This document shows positions 8,268 to 18,819 of a stretch of DNA of 64,000 bases, piece by piece. The stretch's first letter is position 1. Each line of letters opens with the position of its first letter. The translations under genes were made by a program, and so were the position numbers. The DNA is from Escherichia phage JY01. The stretch lies in sequence record OR995200.1. The stretch is one strand, 5' to 3'. The notes beneath the pieces were generated by a model. The model did not search any database. It saw only the letters and a list, made by a program, of their open reading frames with translations, and had not been told where the DNA came from.

Positions 8268-9833
8268 ATGACTATCAAAACTAAAGCTGAACTTTTGAAC
8301 AAATGGAAGCCATTACTGGAAGGTGAAGGTTTACCGGAAATTGCTAATAGCAAACAAGCGATTATCGCTAAAATCTTTGAAAACCAGGAAAAAGATTTCC
8401 AGACAGCTCCGGAATATAAAGACGAAAAAATTGCTCAGGCATTCGGTTCTTTCTTAACAGAAGCTGAAATCGGTGGTGACCACGGTTACAATGCTACCAA
8501 CATCGCTGCAGGTCAGACTTCTGGCGCAGTAACTCAGATTGGCCCAGCTGTTATGGGTATGGTACGTCGTGCTATTCCTAACCTGATTGCTTTCGATATT
8601 TGCGGTGTTCAGCCGATGAACAGCCCGACTGGTCAGGTATTCGCACTTCGTGCGGTATATGGTAAAGACCCAATCGCTTCCGGCGCTAAAGAAGCATTCC
8701 ACCCAATGTATGGTCCAGATGCAATGTTCTCTGGTCAGGGTGCTGCTAAGAAATTCGCTGCTTTGAAAGCAAGTGATACTCTTGAAGTTGGAACTATTTA
8801 CACCCACTTCTTCCAGGACACTGGTACTGTGTATCTGCAAGCTACAGAAGCTAAACAAATTGATTCAGGCGCATCTGACGCAGCTAAATTAGATGCTGAA
8901 ATTAAGAAACAAATGGAAGCAGGTGTACTGGTAGAAATCGCTGAAGGTATGGCTACTTCTATCGCTGAACTCCAGGAAGGTTTTAACGGTTCTACCGATA
9001 ACCCATGGAATGAAATGGGCTTCCGTATCGATAAGCAAGTTATCGAAGCTAAATCTCGTCAGCTGAAAGCTGCTTACTCTATTGAATTAGCACAAGACCT
9101 CCGCGCTGTTCATGGTATGGATGCTGATGCTGAACTGTCTGGTATTCTGGCTACCGAAATTATGCTGGAAATCAACCGCGAAGTTGTTGATTGGATTAAC
9201 TACTCCGCTCAGGTTGGTAAATCTGGTATGACCCTGACTCCGGGTTCTAAAGCTGGTGTATTCGACTTCCAGGACCCAATCGATATTCGTGGTGCTCGCT
9301 GGGCGGGTGAATCCTTTAAAGCTCTGTTGTTCCAGATTGACAAAGAAGCAGTTGAAATTGCTCGTCAAACCGGTCGTGGTGAAGGTAACTTCATTATCGC
9401 TTCCCGTAACGTAGTTAACGTTCTGGCTTCAGTTGATACCGGCATTTCTTATGCTGCACAAGGTCTGGCTACCGGCTTTAACACTGATACTACCAAGTCA
9501 GTATTTGCTGGTGTTCTGGGTGGTAAATACCGTGTATATATCGACCAGTATGCTAAACAGGATTATTTCACTGTAGGTTATAAAGGTCCGAACGAAATGG
9601 ATGCTGGTATTTACTACGCTCCATATGTAGCTCTGACTCCACTGCGTGGTTCTGATCCGAAGAACTTCCAACCGGTAATGGGGTTCAAAACTCGTTACGG
9701 TATCGGTATCAACCCATTTGCAGAATCCGCTGCTCAGGCTCCGGCTTCTCGCATTCAGAGTGGTATGCCTTCTATCCTGAACAGCCTTGGTAAGAACGCT
9801 TACTTCCGCCGTGTATATGTTAAAGGTATCTAA
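8268..9833 (+). CDS. 23: major capsid protein gp23
   Basis: 521 aa, T4 gp23 length; high-expression codon usage; terminator hairpin downstream. Confidence 0.96.
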   Translation: MTIKTKAELLNKWKPLLEGEGLPEIANSKQAIIAKIFENQEKDFQTAPEYKDEKIAQAFGSFLTEAEIGGDHGYNATNIAAGQTSGAVTQIGPAVMGMVRRAIPNLIAFDICGVQPMNSPTGQVFALRAVYGKDPIASGAKEAFHPMYGPDAMFSGQGAAKKFAALKASDTLEVGTIYTHFFQDTGTVYLQATEAKQIDSGASDAAKLDAEIKKQMEAGVLVEIAEGMATSIAELQEGFNGSTDNPWNEMGFRIDKQVIEAKSRQLKAAYSIELAQDLRAVHGMDADAELSGILATEIMLEINREVVDWINYSAQVGKSGMTLTPGSKAGVFDFQDPIDIRGARWAGESFKALLFQIDKEAVEIARQTGRGEGNFIIASRNVVNVLASVDTGISYAAQGLATGFNTDTTKSVFAGVLGGKYRVYIDQYAKQDYFTVGYKGPNEMDAGIYYAPYVALTPLRGSDPKNFQPVMGFKTRYGIGINPFAESAAQAPASRIQSGMPSILNSLGKNAYFRRVYVKGI

Positions 9834-9846
9834 TCTTTGACGATTT

Positions 9847-9866
9847 AAGGGACCTTCGGGTCCCTT
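9847..9866 (+). terminator. terminator hairpin after gene 23
   Basis: GGGACC-TTCG-GGTCCC followed by a T-rich run. Confidence 0.65.
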
Positions 9867-9881
9867 TAGTTGTTTTTATGG

Positions 9882-9889
9882 TATAAATA
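9882..9889 (+). promoter_or_regulatory. late promoter (TATAAATA) for gene 24
   Basis: exact TATAAATA ~28 bp upstream of the gene 24 ATG, after the gene 23 terminator. Confidence 0.65.
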
Positions 9890-9916
9890 AATCATATAAA
9901 CTGAAAGGAAAGCGCA

Positions 9917-11200
9917 ATGGCTAAAATCAACGAACTTCTGCGCGAATCAACCACAACGAATAGCAACTCAATCGGTCGCCCAAATCTCGTTGCTTTGACT
10001 CGCGCTACCACTAAATTAATATATTCTGACATTGTAGCAACGCAAAGAACTAATCAACCTGTTGCTGCTTTTTATGGTATCAAATACCTTAACCCAGACA
10101 ATGAATTTACATTTAAAACTGGTGCTACTTATGCTGGCGAAGCTGGATATGTAGACCGAGAAAAAATCACAGAATTAACAGAAGAGTCTAAATTAACTCT
10201 CAATAAAGGCGATTTATTCAAATATAATAATATCGTTTATAAAGTATTAGAAGATACACCATTTGCTGATATTGAAGAAAGTGATTTAGAATTAGCTCTT
10301 CAGATTGCAATTGTTCTTTTAAAGGTTCGTCTATTTTCTGACGCAGCGTCAACAAGCAAATTTGAAAGCTCTGATAGTGAAATTGCGGATGCTAGATTCC
10401 AGATTAATAAATGGCAAACCGCAGTTAAATCTCGTAAACTTAAAACTGGTATCACGGTTGAATTAGCACAAGATTTAGAAGCAAATGGATTCGATGCTCC
10501 TAATTTCTTAGAAGATTTGCTTGCAACTGAAATGGCAGATGAAATCAATAAAGATATTCTGCAGTCTTTGATTACAGTATCAAAACGTTATAAAGTTACA
10601 GGAATTACTGATACTGGATTCATTGATTTGAGTTATGCATCTGCACCTGAAGCTGGTCGTTCATTATACCGAATGGTATGCGAAATGGTTTCGCATATCC
10701 AAAAAGAATCAACTTATACAGCAACGTTCTGTGTTGCTTCTGCTCGTGCCGCTGCGATTCTTGCTGCATCTGGTTGGTTAAAACATAAACCAGAAGATGA
10801 CAAGTATCTTTCACAAAATGCCTATGGGTTCTTAGCTAATGGTTTACCGCTTTATTGCGATACTAACAGCCCATTAGATTATGTAATCGTTGGCGTAGTA
10901 GAAAATATCGGTGAAAAAGAAATTGTTGGATCAATTTTCTATGCTCCGTATACAGAAGGTCTCGACTTAGATGACCCTGAACATGTAGGTGCATTTAAAG
11001 TTGTGGTTGATCCAGAAAGCTTACAACCGTCTATCGGTTTATTAGTTAGATATGCTTTATCTGCAAATCCTTACACCGTAGCAAAAGATGAAAAAGAAGC
11101 AAGAGTAATTGATGGTGGAGACATGGATAAAATGGCGGGTCGTTCAGATTTGTCTGTTTTATTAGGTGTTAAATTACCAAAAATTATTATCGATGAATAA
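9917..11200 (+). CDS. 24: capsid vertex protein gp24
   Basis: 427 aa, gp23 paralogue fold, T4 gp24 length; late promoter upstream. Confidence 0.93.
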   Translation: MAKINELLRESTTTNSNSIGRPNLVALTRATTKLIYSDIVATQRTNQPVAAFYGIKYLNPDNEFTFKTGATYAGEAGYVDREKITELTEESKLTLNKGDLFKYNNIVYKVLEDTPFADIEESDLELALQIAIVLLKVRLFSDAASTSKFESSDSEIADARFQINKWQTAVKSRKLKTGITVELAQDLEANGFDAPNFLEDLLATEMADEINKDILQSLITVSKRYKVTGITDTGFIDLSYASAPEAGRSLYRMVCEMVSHIQKESTYTATFCVASARAAAILAASGWLKHKPEDDKYLSQNAYGFLANGLPLYCDTNSPLDYVIVGVVENIGEKEIVGSIFYAPYTEGLDLDDPEHVGAFKVVVDPESLQPSIGLLVRYALSANPYTVAKDEKEARVIDGGDMDKMAGRSDLSVLLGVKLPKIIIDE

Positions 11201-11206
11201 AACAAA

Positions 11207-11222
11207 GGGACCTTTCGGTCCC
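11207..11222. terminator. bidirectional terminator between convergent genes 24 and rnlB
   Basis: GGGACC-TTTC-GGTCCC followed by TTTTTATTT. Confidence 0.65.
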
Positions 11223-11229
11223 TTTTTAT

Positions 11230-12234
11230 TTAGCTCACCAACTCAATCCAAGCTGGACGAAGTACATCTTGCGCCATTTTAACTAATTCCTTTTTAATCA
11301 AAGAAGGATTATCTGCTTGAGTTAGAGTAATACCTTCACGAGAAGTTTCTTCCAAAATATCTTGGACAGTTAGCCCCATCACCTTTCCAAAATCCTTTGG
11401 ACCAATTTCGCCAATTTTAGAAATAACGTTATTTACTCGGTTCAGTGTAACGTAACAAGCTAAAATTCCCACCAATTTGTTATCAGCTTCTGACAATTCA
11501 ACTTTAGCTTTAATAGGCTTATCAGACTTTTTCTTTTCACTAAATTTAGAATTCTTGCATTTGATGGCTACACGATTGCGATTAGGCAGCCAAGAAGGAT
11601 AACAAGGTTTCAATACATATCCTTCAGCGGTAAATACTTCGCCTTTGGCTTCGGCATTCCAAACGCATTTATTTGCATCAACTAATCCAGCATGGTCTAC
11701 TGTAAAATTATAATCTTGGACGACAGAATCTAAATCATTTGGCAATTTAATAAGCTCTTCAAATTTACCGCGACCTAAAAGTGGAGCCATTTTAAATTTA
11801 AATGTATTGCAGAATGATTCCATCATATAATCATCGACATAAGTCACGTCACCACTTTCTGTAGTGACAATAATGTCAAATACATAGAAATCTTTATCAC
11901 CATAATCAACATTCTTCTGAATGCCAGGTCCAGCGAATTCGCCAAAAACTTGATAAGTCACAACAGCTGAAGTTTCCATAATATCTTGTACTGCTTTAAT
12001 AGAATCAGCGTAATTCTTCAAAATAATTTCATACCCAAAGAAATCTTCAGCAGGAAGAATCGGTCCAGTACGTTTAGCGCAAGTTACTTTATCACGCTCA
12101 ATAATCAATGAGAAATTTGTGCCGTGAATCTTTTCACGAGCTACCCATTCGCCGCCAGTCAATCCCAAGCTATAAAGTTTTTCAATAAATTTAGAGTTGT
12201 AATGATTTTCAAGACTGCTATACTTTTTAAACAT
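11230..12234 (-). CDS. rnlB: RNA ligase 2 (Rnl2)
   Basis: 334 aa; nucleotidyltransferase motif KIHGTN near N-terminus; T4 Rnl2 length and position after gene 24. Confidence 0.9.
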
Positions 12235-12243
12235 AATTAATCC

Positions 12244-12522
12244 TCAAAATGTAATTTCTAACCAATCACCATCACGCTGATCACTATTGACTTTAAAATT
12301 AAATCCTTCTTTTCTCAGCCAATCACCAATTTCTTCAGTAATCAATTTATCACGAGCAGTACAATAATAACTAAAATATGTTTTACCTTGTTCAGCTGCT
12401 TTATTAGCAAGTTCTGAAAAATCTTTAATAAAACACTCTAGTTTAAACTGTTTACTTTTTAATGCTTTTTCACGTAATTGATTAGCAAAAGATTCATTTT
12501 CATAAAGATCATACTGTTCCAT
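12244..12522 (-). CDS. hypothetical protein (24.2-like)
   Basis: 92-aa ORF between rnlB and hoc, tight spacing. Confidence 0.6.
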   Translation of the reverse strand: MEQYDLYENESFANQLREKALKSKQFKLECFIKDFSELANKAAEQGKTYFSYYCTARDKLITEEIGDWLRKEGFNFKVNSDQRDGDWLEITF

Positions 12523-12724
12523 TTTTCACCTTTTTATTAATGTGTCTTTTTCTATAGACAACTTTTTCTCGAGTCTCAAATTTATTCTTTGCAGTCATAG
12601 CTCGAGCCCATAATACAGCCACTTCTTTCGCCTGTAAGTTTAATTCACGAGCAATTTCAATGAATGACTTTCCAGACTCATGAAGTGTAAACACCACAAC
12701 TTCAGTTCTCATAATCAATCTCAT
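12509..12724 (-). CDS. hypothetical protein (24.3-like)
   Basis: 71-aa ORF overlapping the downstream ORF start. Confidence 0.55.
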   Translation of the reverse strand: MRLIMRTEVVVFTLHESGKSFIEIARELNLQAKEVAVLWARAMTAKNKFETREKVVYRKRHINKKVKNGTV

Positions 12725-12793
12725 GTTATCGAGTTGGTGCCATTATATACATCATTTTCTGATTGTGTTTTGTGTGCTTTCAAAATGAAGAAA

Positions 12794-12807
12794 GGGGCCG
12801 AAGCCCC
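12794..12807 (-). terminator. stem-loop after hoc
   Basis: minus strand GGGGC-TTCG-GCCCC then a U-rich run. Confidence 0.5.
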
Positions 12808-12813
12808 TTTCGA

Positions 12814-14232
12814 TTATGGATAAGTATAGATGATACCAGTTTCTAAAGCAGTTTTATGGATGATGTATCCATTACGTGATTCTTGAACATCAACTTCTGG
12901 ATAATCTTTCATCATCTTCTGAAGCGTATAACGATGCAAGTAGTACTTACTATCTGGATCTTCAGTTTTCCAATCTTTACCTTCTTCAGTCATTTTTTGG
13001 ATTTCATCCATAACCCACCAACCGCACCAGATATAAGCTGAAGTACGATGTGGAAGAGGATGAACATAAGGCAATTCACCTTCTGGTTCCGGAGCAACTT
13101 TATCAGTTACCTGAACTTGACCTGTTGTTTTAACTGTTTTGCTATCATAGTCAGTTGCTGTAACGACAGCAGTAACTTCAATAGTTTGACTTCCAACAGA
13201 TGAGGTATCAACAGTATATACGTTAGTTGACCCTTCTACAGGAGAAGAATCTTTCTTCCATGAATAAGTAATTTGCGCTTCTTCTGGAGCATCAGTGACA
13301 TTAGCAGTAAATGTAGCCGAAGCATCTTGCTGAACGTTAATAGAAGGAGGAGTCAATGTAACCTGTGGATTCATTGTCTTTTTATTAACAGTCAGTGATA
13401 CTTCATTCGAAGTAACTTCCTTTTCATTGTAATTTTCTGCTGTTACTTGGGCTACGCATTTAATTCTTTTTACCCCACTTGTAGTTGGAGTATAGCTAAA
13501 TGTAGAGTTAGTTTCTCCACCAACTTGAGAATCATCTACATACCATTTATATGTAGCAGACGCTCCATCAGGTTGAGAAGCTAAGGTAGCAGTAAATTGA
13601 ACTGGGGTTCCAATTACTCCTGCTGGAGGACTATTAGGAGTTACTGCCAATGTAGTTGTCTGTGTCTTTTTATTAACAGTCAGTGATACTTCATTCGAAG
13701 TAACGGTTTTTTCATCATAATTTGTCGCGGTTACTTGAGCTACACACTTGATTTTTTTAACTCCGCTGGCGGCAGGAGTGTAATTAAATGTAGCAGAAGT
13801 CGCTTCGTCTACAGGAGAATCGTCAACGTACCATTGATACGTAGCAGATGCACCTGATGGCTGCGAAGCTAAGGCAGCAGTAAATTTAACAGCTGTTCCG
13901 ATTACTCCAGCAGCGGGACTATTGGGAGTTACTGCCAATGTAGTTGTCTGAGTTTTGTTTTTTACTGTGATAGTTGTAGTAGCTTCTGCTGTTTCAGCTT
14001 CAGATTCTGGAACTGTATTTGTTGCAACAACTTTAATAGTCTTTTGACCAGCAGGACCTTTTAATACATAATCAAAAGTTGCTTCAGACCCATCTTGTGG
14101 AGCATTATCTACACTCCAAGCATAAGTAATAGTTCCACCTCCAGTTTCACCACTGGGTGCAGCAGTAAACTGCTTGGTTTCATCAATAACCCCTGTCGGT
14201 GTTTTAGGAGTTATATCAACTGTAAAAGCCAT
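12814..14232 (-). CDS. hoc: Hoc, highly immunogenic outer capsid protein with an extra Ig-like domain
   Basis: 472 aa; N- and C-terminal parts match T4 Hoc as I recall it (376 aa); contains two tandem 96-aa Ig-like repeats. Confidence 0.9.
   Translation of the reverse strand: MAFTVDITPKTPTGVIDETKQFTAAPSGETGGGTITYAWSVDNAPQDGSEATFDYVLKGPAGQKTIKVVATNTVPESEAETAEATTTITVKNKTQTTTLAVTPNSPAAGVIGTAVKFTAALASQPSGASATYQWYVDDSPVDEATSATFNYTPAASGVKKIKCVAQVTATNYDEKTVTSNEVSLTVNKKTQTTTLAVTPNSPPAGVIGTPVQFTATLASQPDGASATYKWYVDDSQVGGETNSTFSYTPTTSGVKRIKCVAQVTAENYNEKEVTSNEVSLTVNKKTMNPQVTLTPPSINVQQDASATFTANVTDAPEEAQITYSWKKDSSPVEGSTNVYTVDTSSVGSQTIEVTAVVTATDYDSKTVKTTGQVQVTDKVAPEPEGELPYVHPLPHRTSAYIWCGWWVMDEIQKMTEEGKDWKTEDPDSKYYLHRYTLQKMMKDYPEVDVQESRNGYIIHKTALETGIIYTYP
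13381..13668 (-). repeat. Hoc Ig-like domain repeat unit 2 (residues ~189-284)
   Basis: second copy; shares the string gtctttttattaacagtcagtgatacttcattcgaagtaac with unit 1. Confidence 0.8.
13669..13956 (-). repeat. Hoc Ig-like domain repeat unit 1 (residues ~93-188)
   Basis: 288-bp unit tandemly repeated; protein KTQTTTLAVTPNSPAAGVIGT...SLTVNK. Confidence 0.8.
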
Positions 14233-14241
14233 AAGTTATCC

Positions 14242-14922
14242 TTATTTTAATGTTACGAAAGAAGAATTGCGTGTTTCACGAATTAAAACTGATCCGTCAC
14301 GATTAATGTAATAAATTAAGCTAAACAAAGTTTGGTGTGCTGACGCGTGTTCAAAACTAGTTGGATGAGATTTCCAATCAGGAGTTTCAGCGATCCATTG
14401 ATAAATCCACCAAGGAACCGTACAGAATCCTGGATTTTTCCCCAATAATTGAAGATTCGGGCTAAAGTTTTCCGGAAGAGTAAATACAGACGGCTTTTCA
14501 GATTCAATAATCTCAGCTATAGCTTGTTCAAACTTTTCTTCAACAAAAGGAGTGTCTTCAATCAAAACATCAGTATTTTCAGGAATTTTATCCGTTTCTA
14601 CCACTTCAATTTTAATATCAGATTTAACTGGAGAATCAATCAGAAGTGCTGCTTCTGGATTAACTTCTTCATCGTCATATTTTAATCCCTCTGCAGCATC
14701 AGCAGCATCAATTAAGTCTTTAATAGATAACCCATCAGTCTCTGGCATAGGTTCACTAGCGAGCTTCTGGAGGGCTTCTTCAATATCAGCAACGATATTA
14801 TCAAAAGATTTATTCTTTTTGACCTTTATACCAAACTGTTCAGCATATTCAGCTAATTTAGCTTTAGCTTCTTTATTATCATCAAGAGCCTTCAGCTCTG
14901 CAATATAATCTTTATCTATCAT
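14242..14922 (-). CDS. inh: Inh, inhibitor of prohead protease gp21
   Basis: 226 aa, matches T4 Inh in length and position upstream of hoc. Confidence 0.85.
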   Translation of the reverse strand: MIDKDYIAELKALDDNKEAKAKLAEYAEQFGIKVKKNKSFDNIVADIEEALQKLASEPMPETDGLSIKDLIDAADAAEGLKYDDEEVNPEAALLIDSPVKSDIKIEVVETDKIPENTDVLIEDTPFVEEKFEQAIAEIIESEKPSVFTLPENFSPNLQLLGKNPGFCTVPWWIYQWIAETPDWKSHPTSFEHASAHQTLFSLIYYINRDGSVLIRETRNSSFVTLK

Positions 14923-14935
14923 AATATTTCCTCAG

Positions 14936-14943
14936 TATAAATA
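14936..14943 (+). promoter_or_regulatory. late promoter (TATAAATA) for uvsW
   Basis: exact TATAAATA ~30 bp upstream of the uvsW ATG. Confidence 0.6.
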
Positions 14944-14972
14944 TAGATATATTTATTACATGGTATTTAGAC

Positions 14973-16484
14973 ATGACTGACATTAAAGTACATTTTTATG
15001 ATTTTAGTCACGTGAGAATTGATTGTGAAGAAAGTACATTTCATGAACTCCGTGATTTCTTTAGCTTTGAAGCTGATGGGTATCGTTTTAATCCGAAATA
15101 CAAATATGGCCACTGGGATGGACGAATCCGTCTTTTAGATTATAATCGTCTTCTTCCATTCGGCTTAGTCGGGCAAATTAAAAAGTTCTGTGATAACTTT
15201 GGCTATAAAGCCTGGATTGACCCACAAATTAACGAAAAAGAAGAATTATCAAGAAAAGATTTTGATGAATGGCTTTCTAAATTAGAAATCTATTCAGGAA
15301 ATAAAAGAATTGAACCACACTGGTATCAAAAAGATGCAGTGTTCGAAGGATTAGTTAATCGTCGTAGAATTCTTAATCTTCCAACATCCGCAGGTAAATC
15401 TTTAATTCAAGCTTTGCTTGCACGTTATTATTTGGAAAATTATGAAGGTAAAATTCTTATCATTGTTCCAACAACTGCTCTAACAACTCAGATGGCTGAT
15501 GACTTCGTTGACTATCGTTTATTCAGTCATGCAATGATAAAGAAAATTGGTGGCGGAGCATCAAAAGATGATAAATATAAAAATGATGCACCAGTCATTG
15601 TTGGTACATGGCAAACTGTAGTAAAACAGCCAAAAGAATGGTTCTCACAGTTTGGAATGATGATGAATGATGAATGCCATCTTGCTACAGGAAAAAGTAT
15701 TTCATCTATCATATCAGGTTTAAATAACTGCATGTTCAAATTTGGTCTATCTGGTTCATTACGTGATGGCAAAGCCAATATCATGCAGTATGTTGGAATG
15801 TTCGGTGAAATATTTAAGCCAGTAACGACTTCTAAGTTAATGGAAGATGGACAAGTAACTGAGCTAAAAATTAATAGTATTTTTCTTCGCTATCCCGATG
15901 AGTTCACTACTAAATTAAAGGGAAAAACTTATCAAGAAGAAATAAAAATTATTACGGGGCTTAGTAAAAGAAATAAATGGATCGCTAAATTAGCTATTAA
16001 GCTTGCGCAAAAAGATGAAAACGCTTTTGTCATGTTTAAACATGTATCGCATGGTAAAGCTATTTTCGATTTAATTAAAAATGAATACGATAAAGTTTAT
16101 TACGTATCAGGGGAAGTTGATACCGAAACCCGCAATATAATGAAAACCTTAGCTGAAAATGGTAAAGGAATAATTATAGTAGCTAGTTATGGTGTATTTT
16201 CTACTGGTATTTCAGTTAAAAATCTGCATCACGTTGTTTTAGCGCACGGTGTTAAATCAAAAATCATTGTATTACAAACAATCGGTCGTGTATTACGTAA
16301 GCATGGTTCTAAGACAATAGCAACAGTCTGGGACCTCATAGATGATTGTGGTGTTAAGCCAAAATCTGCTAATACGAAAAAGAAATATGTTCATTTGAAC
16401 TATCTTTTAAAACACGGCATTGATCGTATTCAGCGCTACGCAGATGAAAAATTTAATTACGTAATGAAAACAGTTAATTTATAA
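14973..16484 (+). CDS. uvsW: UvsW DNA/RNA helicase (SF2)
   Basis: 503 aa; Walker A TSAGKS, DECH box (MMNDECH); T4 UvsW length; late promoter upstream. Confidence 0.93.
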   Translation: MTDIKVHFYDFSHVRIDCEESTFHELRDFFSFEADGYRFNPKYKYGHWDGRIRLLDYNRLLPFGLVGQIKKFCDNFGYKAWIDPQINEKEELSRKDFDEWLSKLEIYSGNKRIEPHWYQKDAVFEGLVNRRRILNLPTSAGKSLIQALLARYYLENYEGKILIIVPTTALTTQMADDFVDYRLFSHAMIKKIGGGASKDDKYKNDAPVIVGTWQTVVKQPKEWFSQFGMMMNDECHLATGKSISSIISGLNNCMFKFGLSGSLRDGKANIMQYVGMFGEIFKPVTTSKLMEDGQVTELKINSIFLRYPDEFTTKLKGKTYQEEIKIITGLSKRNKWIAKLAIKLAQKDENAFVMFKHVSHGKAIFDLIKNEYDKVYYVSGEVDTETRNIMKTLAENGKGIIIVASYGVFSTGISVKNLHHVVLAHGVKSKIIVLQTIGRVLRKHGSKTIATVWDLIDDCGVKPKSANTKKKYVHLNYLLKHGIDRIQRYADEKFNYVMKTVNL

Positions 16485-16496
16485 GGGCTTCGGCCC
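16485..16496 (+). terminator. small stem-loop at the uvsW stop
   Basis: GGGC-TTCG-GCCC overlapping the uvsW.1 SD; possible RNA stability or coupling element. Confidence 0.4.
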
Positions 16497-16509
16497 TTTG
16501 GAGAAAAAG

Positions 16510-16740
16510 ATGTTACTAGAATTTAAACAATTTCTTTATGAAGCTTCTATTGATGAATTTATGGGTAAAATTGCCTCTTGCCAAACATTAGAAGGTTTAG
16601 AAGAACTTGAAGCTTATTATAAGAAAAGAGTTAAAGAAACTGAATTAAAAGATACTGATGACATCTCAGTCAGAGATGCTTTGGCAGGAAAAAGAGCTGA
16701 ATTAGAAGATTCAGACGATGAAGTAGAAGAAAGCTTTTAA
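16510..16740 (+). CDS. uvsW.1: UvsW.1 small acidic protein
   Basis: 76 aa from the ATG at 16510 (ORF-track start 16498 is a TTG inside a hairpin). Confidence 0.75.
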   Translation: MLLEFKQFLYEASIDEFMGKIASCQTLEGLEELEAYYKKRVKETELKDTDDISVRDALAGKRAELEDSDDEVEESF

Positions 16741-16796
16741 ATTAAAAAAGGCCCAACCAAAAAAGGAAGGGCCAAAACTATAGACTAAAGGTCACA

Positions 16797-16964
16797 CTAT
16801 AGCAAAAGTTGTGTTTCATTTAATTGTTCTTCCGAACTTTCTGAAACTGGTAGTTCTTTAATGTAATTATAGCAAGGCCCAGGATGTACAGGACCTTTGT
16901 CTGTTTCAACAACCAATGCAGAATCGATTGGAGTTTTACAGACAACACAAATCTTATCTGACAT
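16797..16964 (-). CDS. small Cys-containing protein (uvsY.-2-like), 55 aa
   Basis: ORF below the track cutoff, translated by hand: MSDKICVVCKTPIDSALVVETDKGPVHPGPCYNYIKELPVSESSEEQLNETQLLL; GGAG SD upstream. Confidence 0.55.
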   Translation of the reverse strand: MSDKICVVCKTPIDSALVVETDKGPVHPGPCYNYIKELPVSESSEEQLNETQLLL

Positions 16965-17087
16965 GATTGTCTCCTCTGAATTATATATCTATTTATAACC
17001 CCATCTTAAAGCGCATTTCTTGTACACGCTTTAAACATGCTTCCATTTCTGCTAAAAGTCTAAATACTTCTTTATAATTTGTCATAT

Positions 17088-17315
17088 TTACCCCATATCT
17101 CTCATATGCATATCAATGCCCATATCTTTAGAATAAAAATATTCATCAAGATATCCGGCAAATTTTCCTTTAATATAAAGGACATCTTCACCACACGGGT
17201 GGTCGGCCAGGATACGAATATCCTGACGCTTAAGATTATGCTTTTTCATTAAGAATTGAATCTCAGTTTCAAATTCTTCTTCATAATTAAAAGCATCATC
17301 AATGTTATATCTCAT
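17088..17315 (-). CDS. hypothetical protein (uvsY.-1-like)
   Basis: 75-aa ORF immediately downstream of uvsY, overlapping junction. Confidence 0.65.
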   Translation of the reverse strand: MRYNIDDAFNYEEEFETEIQFLMKKHNLKRQDIRILADHPCGEDVLYIKGKFAGYLDEYFYSKDMGIDMHMRDMG

Positions 17316-17728
17316 TATTTTCCAGCCTCAAATGCCCGCATGTCTTGAATATGCTTAATAGCAAATCCTCGTGATTTGATAGCATCAAGAGCTCCGCTAC
17401 AGAAATCTAATAAAATTCCCCAATATTGTAATGAAGTATCAACCTTTAAAACATCCTTATCAGCTGATAGAACTGTTTTCATTTCTGATTTCTCGTAACG
17501 ATCCATACTAAATTCATCACCATCTCCTCGTCCCGAGTAGTAGTCTAATTTAGCTTTAAGAGCAACTTTTTTCTGTGCATCAATTCTAAGCATTTCCTTT
17601 TTAATACTTGAATGCTTATTAAGCCATTTACTATATAACATCACATTATTAGCTGCTTCATACTGTAATTTAGTCGAATCTATAAACACATCTTTCTTCA
17701 ATTCTTCTTGAAGATCTTCTAATCTCAT
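17315..17728 (-). CDS. uvsY: UvsY recombination mediator protein
   Basis: 137 aa, matches T4 UvsY; MotA-box middle promoter upstream. Confidence 0.93.
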   Translation of the reverse strand: MRLEDLQEELKKDVFIDSTKLQYEAANNVMLYSKWLNKHSSIKKEMLRIDAQKKVALKAKLDYYSGRGDGDEFSMDRYEKSEMKTVLSADKDVLKVDTSLQYWGILLDFCSGALDAIKSRGFAIKHIQDMRAFEAGK

Positions 17729-17768
17729 ATTGTTCTCTATTCAATTGTTATTGGATGGACTTAGATTC

Positions 17769-17794
17769 ATTATACCACGTTTATACGTGAAGCA
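17769..17794 (-). promoter_or_regulatory. middle promoter for uvsY (MotA box + -10)
   Basis: minus strand: ATGCTTCA (MotA box) - 13 nt - TATAAT, ~40 bp upstream of the uvsY ATG. Confidence 0.6.
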
Positions 17795-18193
17795 TTATAC
17801 TCTATTACTGGAAGCCAGTTGTAGTTTTATCTGCTCAATATCATCAGGGTTATCGATGACTGAAAAGCGTATTTCTACTATCAAAGTATAATCATCATAA
17901 ACCGGTATTACATTAACTGCTAATTTATCAATACGTGGCTCATAGTTTCTTACTGCGCTTTCGATATTACGCTCAACCGTGTCAGCAGTAAGAGGAGTCA
18001 TATTCTCAAAAAGTTGGTCAGATAAATCGCATCCAAATTCAGGGTCAAACGGTCTTGAACCTTTTCTTGTTGTAATAATTCCTAAAAGACTATTTTTAAT
18101 TGACCTTAATCCAAGTGATCTTGAAACGTCTTTGTTCCAATCCATTTTCATCTCTGGGTCAATATCAGAATAAAGCTTATTAATATTTGCCAT
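17795..18193 (-). CDS. 25: baseplate wedge protein gp25
   Basis: 132 aa, T4 gp25 length and sequence. Confidence 0.92.
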   Translation of the reverse strand: MANINKLYSDIDPEMKMDWNKDVSRSLGLRSIKNSLLGIITTRKGSRPFDPEFGCDLSDQLFENMTPLTADTVERNIESAVRNYEPRIDKLAVNVIPVYDDYTLIVEIRFSVIDNPDDIEQIKLQLASSNRV

Positions 18194-18819
18194 TACAATA
18201 GCTCAAAGAATTCTTTGAGTCCTCTTATTACATGAGCGCGAGTTTTTCCACACTCTGGACATTTAATTGGAACAGCCAAATAAACAGTAGGCTTTAAAAG
18301 CATATCTTTTATAGCTACAATATCTGGCTCTGTGATGATAGAATATAAATCTTCCAATTCTTTTTCATTTAAGTCTTCAACTGGAATGCTTTCCCCGTTA
18401 GCGTGAATCGTTTCTATACATGATACTATCATGTGGGCTATATTTTTATCATCAAAAATTTTAGGGTAATGGAATTTAATTTTAATGTCACCCAGTGTAT
18501 ACCAGAGGTCTTCTGGTGCATCTATTTGTGTATGTAATAGATTTATATGGGTTGGTATTTCAGTTCCGCAGGTGCACTTCCAGGAGTTTTCGTGATTAAC
18601 TTCGCCAAGAGAATGTGCCCATAAATGAATCAACAATAGTTCTGATTCTTGACGATTTAAATCTTTTGCATTTGTGCAGTCTTTGATTAGCTTTTTAACA
18701 ATTACTTCTACGGAACCATTATTTTTGGCAGTAATAAGTTCTAGATATTCTTTAAGCGTGAATGCGCGACAATTGATTATTTTAGAACCAACTCTCACAT
18801 CAAATTTGTATTCATACAT
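18193..18819 (-). CDS. 26: baseplate hub protein gp26
   Basis: 208 aa, position upstream of 25, divergent from 51. Confidence 0.88.

Follow-up and report, generated by a model that had tools for sequence, protein, structure and literature searches.

The hoc locus of phage JY01 and its two tandem modules

The 64,000-nt stretch of Escherichia phage JY01 DNA analyzed here (record OR995200.1; hereafter the window) carries on its minus strand an ORF of 472 codons plus a stop, which we assign to hoc (Table 1). The encoded protein is identical to Hoc of the Shigella phage Sf23 (ATE86437.1), the two genes differing by a single synonymous nucleotide, and a search of solved structures matches it to T4 Hoc (PDB 5vf3_Z, 376 aa) with an E value of 1.7e-222. 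It has the features expected of a Hoc protein: a T4-like C-terminal domain, an N-terminal string of Ig-like domains, and a position between a 226-aa Inh homologue on one side and 24.3, 24.2, and rnlB on the other. In the Sf23 annotation, the counterparts of the surrounding ORFs are Inh, gp24.3, gp24.2, and RnlB, and the order inh-hoc-24.3 is the T4-type arrangement. According to the ORF list of the window, no ORF of at least 60 aa runs on the opposite strand across 13381-13956.

Alignment to T4 Hoc falls into two pieces. Residues 1-113 of the JY01 protein correspond to T4 residues 1-113, and residues 189-472 align end to end with T4 residues 93-376 (565 bits). Hence, JY01 Hoc contains exactly one additional 96-aa module and is otherwise collinear with its T4 counterpart, up to and including the last 96 residues, whose near-identity was counted directly in the alignment. 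The first-pass annotation, made from the sequence alone, had described a 472-aa Hoc against 376 aa in T4, with one extra Ig-like module and a collinear remainder that includes the C-terminus; the lengths are confirmed by the ORF and by 5vf3_Z, and the layout by the T4 alignment.

Table 1. Positions of hoc, its domains, and associated features in the window.
Feature	Position	Strand	Basis
hoc coding sequence	12814..14232	-	ORF; match to PDB 5vf3_Z; identical translation in Sf23; inh-24.3 context
Ig-like domain 1 (aa 1-92)	13957..14232	-	aligns with T4 Hoc 1-92; predicted beta-sandwich, block-mean pLDDT 80-92
Module a (aa 93-188), PKD/Ig-like, alpha lineage P48/E51/A52 (module numbering)	13669..13956	-	DNA and motif comparison
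Module b (aa 189-284), PKD/Ig-like, beta lineage Q48/G51/E52, counterpart of T4 domain 2	13381..13668	-	alignment; best Pfam PKD stretch 195-267
Ig-like domain 3 (aa 285-376)	13105..13380	-	Pfam Ig_3/I-set 289-355, below gathering cut-off; aligns with T4 189-280; strand block-mean pLDDT 81-94
Linker and C-terminal capsid-binding domain (aa 377-472)	12817..13104	-	94/96 identical to T4 Hoc 281-376; AlphaFold2 pLDDT 36-65
42-nt perfect direct repeat, copy 1 (last 36 nt of module a + 6 nt)	13663..13704	-	sequence comparison
42-nt perfect direct repeat, copy 2 (last 36 nt of module b + 6 nt of domain 3)	13375..13416	-	sequence comparison
Likely intrinsic terminator: GC-rich hairpin, then T-run	12790..12811	-	begins 3 nt past the hoc stop; putative terminator annotated at the same place in phage G28

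At the DNA level, the additional module and its neighbor form a tandem pair. Tandem Repeats Finder reports a period of 288 nt in 2.0 copies at 13375-13950 (79% matches, score 733), and a second repeat search recovers the same pair of units at 78%. In the register of the protein, the pair spans 13381-13956, with unit a (aa 93-188) preceding unit b (aa 189-284). The two tandem 96-aa/288-nt repeats already proposed for this position are therefore borne out by both repeat finders and by the protein register.

Profile and structure predictions are consistent with a string of Ig-like domains. The Pfam PKD model (PF00801) scores 41 bits for the whole protein, against a cut-off of 23.5, with matching stretches in both modules and the best of them in module b; the Ig_3 and I-set models match domain 3 at scores below their cut-offs. 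AlphaFold2, supplied with an alignment of 35 homologues, predicts four beta-sandwich domains (approximately residues 1-91, 93-187, 189-283, and 285-376; block means mostly 86-96; overall mean pLDDT 84), and modules a and b share one predicted strand pattern. Prediction is poor for the C-terminal domain. Of the architecture anticipated in the first-pass annotation, four Ig-like domains followed by a capsid-binding domain, structure prediction thus recovers the four sandwiches and leaves the last domain at low confidence (pLDDT 36-65). A Foldseek search of the PDB returned multi-Ig chains at E values near 1e-12, among them Sidekick-2 and Dscam1 fragments of four Ig domains, with no Hoc structure among the 50 matches listed. 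Given these generic matches and the poor C-terminal model, the fold search adds only the Ig-string architecture.

Two further features of the locus were observed upstream of hoc. The gap between inh and uvsW is only 50 nt (14923-14972), so that the segE homing-endonuclease gene is absent here; in T4 strain 147, segE lies about 740 nt upstream of hoc. The same gap contains a T4 late-promoter consensus, TATAAATA, on the plus strand at 14936-14943, 30 nt upstream of the uvsW start. The window contains 19 occurrences of this consensus where 8.3 are expected, and no exact copy is present on the minus strand upstream of inh-hoc.

Divergence of the two units and their relatives in other phages

Units a and b match at 224 of 288 nucleotides (77.8%) and at 77 of 96 residues (80%), with 30 synonymous and 19 non-synonymous codon differences. 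The Nei-Gojobori estimates are 1.01 for dS and 0.12 for dN, and synonymous divergence between the units is saturated. The differences are concentrated away from the ends: the central 219 nt are 72% identical (pS 0.70), and the most diverged segment reaches a pN of 0.20 and a pS of 0.78. Only two long runs are identical, one of 26 nt close to the 5' end and one of 36 nt at the 3' end, the latter continuing 6 nt past the module boundary to give a perfect direct repeat of 42 nt at a spacing of 288 nt (Table 1). The description of the units as near-identical DNA consequently does not hold, given the overall identity and a dS of about 1.0.

We also asked whether the copies have been under diversifying selection; with a crude Nei-Gojobori dN/dS as low as 0.12, there is no signal of it. 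Differences between the units fall somewhat more often in predicted loops (12 of 43 loop residues, compared with 7 of 53 strand residues), a distribution that is not significant (p = 0.12).

To place the two units among their relatives, we compared the DNA of every module in the hoc genes of eleven further genomes. The first module of Sf23 and the sole module of a 376-aa allele, that of genome L001, match unit a at 100% identity; the first modules of ECO4 and G28 match it at 94%, and those of PP01, HP3, and UGKSEcP1 at 85-88%. For unit b, the identity is 95% with the only module of the RB51 allele, 94% and 92% with the b modules of ECO4 and PP01, respectively, and 88% with domain 2 of T4. Adjacent modules within each multi-module gene compared are only 74-78% identical, whereas like-positioned units in different phages, or the single unit of 376-aa alleles, are 85-100% identical.

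The same grouping by lineage, and not by phage, is found for 163 modules drawn from 120 database proteins, the window, and T4. It is reflected in the residues at module positions 48, 51, and 52: of 38 first modules, 37 have PEA, second modules have QGE for the most part, and six of eight third modules have LGE. Among alleles with a single module (n = 79), QGE is the most frequent combination (53), followed by PEA (17), QEA (6), and LGE (3). Because each unit is closer to modules of other phages than to its own neighbor, the copies are best regarded as old paralogues. On the evidence of these sequence comparisons, modules a and b are paralogous lineages older than the divergence among the alleles sampled.

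All modules nevertheless share their ends: the first 11 and last 12 residues are conserved in every module. Between neighboring modules, the first 33 nt are approximately 79-91% identical and the last 36 nt approximately 86-100%. Across all alleles, the last 36 nt match at 31-36 positions, compared with 72-75% identity in the module interior. Only the JY01/Sf23 allele has the repeat in its perfect 42-nt form, the other alleles matching at 31-35 of 36 positions at their module ends, and local homogenization appears at module ends only and in this allele only. At a background of 0.20 synonymous differences per codon, 12 identical codons are mildly unexpected (p of approximately 0.07, an estimate). 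Constraint at the nucleotide level was considered and rejected for the module ends, as six of the last 12 codons vary synonymously among 18 distinct modules; this variation likewise marks the perfect repeat as allele-specific and not universal.

Copy-number variation and proposed exchange of whole modules

Tequatrovirus hoc alleles encode one, two, or three modules, giving proteins of 376, 472, or 568 aa. Among the best 120 protein-cluster representatives, 78 are 376 aa long, 29 are 472 aa, and seven are 568 aa, with one each of 570, 567, 468, 377, 378, and 365 aa. We estimated the frequency of multi-module alleles with a 23-aa peptide spanning the module-to-module junction, searched in 636 phage records. 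The peptide matches at 90% identity or more in 229 records and at 80-90% in a further 18, so that approximately 36-39% of the roughly 636 records (229-247) encode at least two modules. The remaining 389 records match at 60-80% only, the rows listed ranging from 60.9 to 73.9%; 69.6 and 73.9% are the scores that the junction between domains 2 and 3 produces with this peptide. A peptide for the domain 2-to-domain 3 junction itself has matches in 612 records. Three modules are encoded in approximately 23 records.

Several alleles differ from one another by precisely one module. The 376-aa protein of L001 (P0089) equals JY01 Hoc without unit b, plus one substitution; its gene equals JY01 hoc without 288 nt, with four other differences in 1131 nt, and the regions flanking it are 97-98.6% identical to the window. 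The alignment allows the deletion junction at any of gene positions 528-570, inside the 42-nt repeat. Three further pairs of near-identical alleles differ by the removal of module a or module c, and the two modules of the HP3 allele are the counterparts of the first and the third in UGKSEcP1. Alleles that differ by whole units, four pairs that are one module apart, and a junction that lies within a repeat together identify the locus as a copy-number-polymorphic array, and the earlier suggestion that it is prone to expansion and contraction is well supported by the 376-, 472-, and 568-aa alleles and the near-identical pairs.

ECO4 and G28 carry the a and b lineages together, which makes loss of unit b in L001 the simplest account of the L001 allele. 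The loss would have occurred by recombination between the direct repeats, its direction being suggested by parsimony. In principle, L001 could instead represent the ancestral state and the JY01 allele a gain.

The gene and its surroundings differ in how closely they match other phages. Positions 8814-18233 of the window contain 119 mismatches to Sf23 in 9.4 kb (1.3%), only one of which lies in the 1419 nt of hoc. L001 shows a parallel pattern, with four differences in 1131 nt of hoc inside the more diverged flanks described above. Judging from these identities, the hoc allele seems to have been shared more recently than its neighborhood, as expected under mosaic exchange.

We consider it highly probable that the window holds a two-module, alpha-beta allele of hoc, drawn from an array of one to three old paralogous modules that recombine as whole units. 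In this model, one to three PKD/Ig-like modules of 96 aa are arrayed in the central part of Hoc in Tequatrovirus; they fall into at least three old paralogous lineages, set apart mainly by the module interior. The conserved module ends, together with the flanking domains 1 and 3, would provide the substrate for homologous recombination, through which whole modules could be lost, gained, or swapped between co-infecting phages. In the JY01 allele, the substrate would be the 42-nt repeat at its 288-nt spacing, where a natural derivative appears to have lost module b. Recombination at the module ends is here suggested by the position of that junction.

An alternative is that the alpha-beta allele was assembled recently, in that a phage with a single alpha module gained, by recombination with a co-infecting phage, a beta module or a whole alpha-beta segment, with L001 retaining the ancestral state. 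Single-module alleles of both the alpha (17 of 79) and the beta type (53 of 79) do exist, unit a equals the sole module of L001, unit b comes within 5% of the sole module of RB51, and the near-identity of hoc to its Sf23 counterpart within more divergent surroundings is a pattern of mosaic exchange. However, there is almost no homology through which a module end could be fused to the end of domain 1 from another genome, and loss of a module between the two 42-nt direct repeats requires a simpler mechanism. In addition, the joint presence of both lineages in ECO4 and G28, at 94% identity each, makes the alpha-beta arrangement most simply ancestral to this group. We therefore regard a recent assembly as improbable.

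Even less probable, to the point of being very unlikely, is a recent tandem duplication of the T4-type domain 2 in this lineage, with gene conversion maintaining the similarity of the copies, as the first-pass annotation had proposed. The units are indeed exactly tandem and in frame with 80% amino acid identity, the module ends are spanned by the perfect repeat, and there is not a single synonymous difference in the last 36 nt. A recent duplication would, however, leave near-identical units of low synonymous divergence, in contrast to the dS of about 1.0 and the central pS of 0.70 obtained here. Under concerted evolution, the modules of one genome would likewise resemble each other more closely than modules of different genomes, and the reverse is seen: 74-78% within every phage examined, compared with 85-94% between unit a and the first modules of ECO4, G28, PP01, HP3, and UGKSEcP1, and 92-95% between unit b and its counterparts in RB51, ECO4, and PP01. 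The positional motif (37 of 38 first modules) and the two-module layout, found in over 200 records with the RB-series phage RB27 among them, also speak against the proposal.

Expansion of the repeat during read mapping or assembly, for which the general risk posed by repeats is the only argument, can be dismissed: the units differ at 64 of 288 positions and share no exact run longer than 42 nt, the reading frame is intact and both units are predicted to fold as complete domains, Sf23 (GenBank and RefSeq records), BECP11, and SfPhi01 carry this gene at 99.8-99.9% identity, and the layout recurs in hundreds of records. An assembly artefact, named at the outset as one of the things that would overturn the duplication, is excluded by these unit differences and independent records.

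LR597660.1 (Escherichia phage T4_ev151) is named as a T4 derivative and encodes a three-module, 568-aa Hoc, while T4 itself has one module; if this phage stems from an evolution or mixing experiment, its hoc may have been replaced by recombination. The 567-aa protein P0040 is a five-Ig Hoc with an alpha-type first module, in which the next two modules and domain 3 are strongly diverged. It is 54% identical to JY01 Hoc overall, and its C-terminal anchor is nearly identical, which suggests block exchange of modules with more distant Hoc lineages.

Relation to known Hoc proteins, possible function, and apparently disrupted genes

Hoc, the highly immunogenic outer capsid protein, is the capsid fiber of T4; a role in mucus adherence has been ascribed to it, and it is in wide use as a scaffold for display. 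JY01 hoc is the same gene as that of T4 (PDB 5vf3 and 8t1x; PMC10385173), at the same inh-hoc-24.3 position, and module b corresponds to T4 domain 2 (88% nucleotide identity). It differs from T4 in having the additional alpha module a between domain 1 and the T4-like domain 2, resulting in four Ig-like domains as opposed to three. Compared with Sf23, nothing of substance is different. BECP11 and the other 472-aa alleles, including those of ECO4, G28, PP01, and RB27, have the same alpha-beta layout; the alleles other than Sf23 and BECP11 are 92-97% identical to JY01 over the hoc DNA and do not have the perfect 42-nt end repeat. The 568-aa alleles (UGKSEcP1, YUEEL01, EC101, and T4_ev151) share domain 1, domain 3, the anchor, and 96-aa modules with conserved ends, and differ from JY01 by a third module of a distinct lineage, L48/G51/E52.

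Variation in the number of Hoc domains among T4-like phages has been described before (PMC13435897, PMC10385173); in the homologues, the conserved C-terminal anchor bears between 1 and 10 Ig-like domains (PMC10385173). Hoc of phage PNJ-9 has two Ig-like domains and lacks D3, again with a variable Ig count on a conserved anchor (PMC11853027); that of Klebsiella phage PMBT63 has an extra Ig-like domain (PMC13435897), and that of Serratia phage Muldoon has 10 (PMC10385173), both on the conserved anchor. These three are distant homologues or losses of other domains, whereas the JY01 case concerns closely related paralogous modules within one genus. A literature search for a one-, two-, or three-module polymorphism or for module lineages within Tequatrovirus returned only general statements that the number of Hoc domains varies.

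The four-Ig-domain allele as such is ordinary and already known, given that an identical protein has been deposited and domain-number variation published. The additions made here are modest and incremental: the old paralogous module lineages, the gain and loss of whole modules, and the natural deletion at the 42-nt repeat. About one third of sequenced Tequatrovirus phages have a Hoc with four or five Ig domains in place of the three of the textbook form. Such variation in domain number is useful to consider in annotation, in mucosal retention of phages used for therapy, and in display engineering.

The unchanged C-terminal domain predicts that JY01 Hoc binds gp23 hexamers at their center, as T4 Hoc does. 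From the near-identity of the anchor to that of T4, one monomer per gp23 hexamer and dispensability of the protein would carry over as well. T4 Hoc is a 180 Å fiber of four domains (PMC10385173); with one more Ig domain, the JY01 fiber would extend approximately 4-5 nm beyond the approximately 18 nm of T4.

In phage PNJ-9, binding of Hoc to MUC2/fucose has been mapped to S183, L184, and T185 in domain 2 (PMC11853027). The S-L-T motif occurs twice in JY01 Hoc, at residues 183-185 and 279-281, as part of the conserved module end. Two D2-type domains thus provide two copies of the motif, and by this reasoning the module duplication may raise binding avidity. A broader proposal, possible though doubtful, is that D2-type modules constitute a population-level set of cassettes, in which recombination shuffles three lineages and sets their number, thereby tuning fiber length, as well as how many glycan- or mucin-binding sites there are and with what specificity, to differing gut or host settings. 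If this were true, the cassette set would represent a modular, recombination-driven adhesin system of the capsid, as opposed to neutral variation in length.

Several records contain an apparently disrupted hoc. In SfPhi01 (99.8% identical to JY01 hoc) and FriedrichMiescher/Bas39 (88.9%), which belong to different lineages, one extra G in the same G-run splits hoc into two annotated ORFs. The site corresponds to GGGG at 13473-13476, in module b (gene nt 757-760); within the compared set this run is present in JY01 and Sf23 only, and the other modules read GGA. It could be a recurrent frameshift hotspot that inactivates a dispensable hoc, or a homopolymer sequencing error. If not sequencing errors, such split or disrupted records fit dispensability of hoc. 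In UFV05, a 1-nt deletion at hoc nt 79, in domain 1, breaks the gene into fragments, apparently another disrupted gene or else a sequencing error, and hoc is annotated in similarly fragmented form in UFV06 and UFV09-UFV11.
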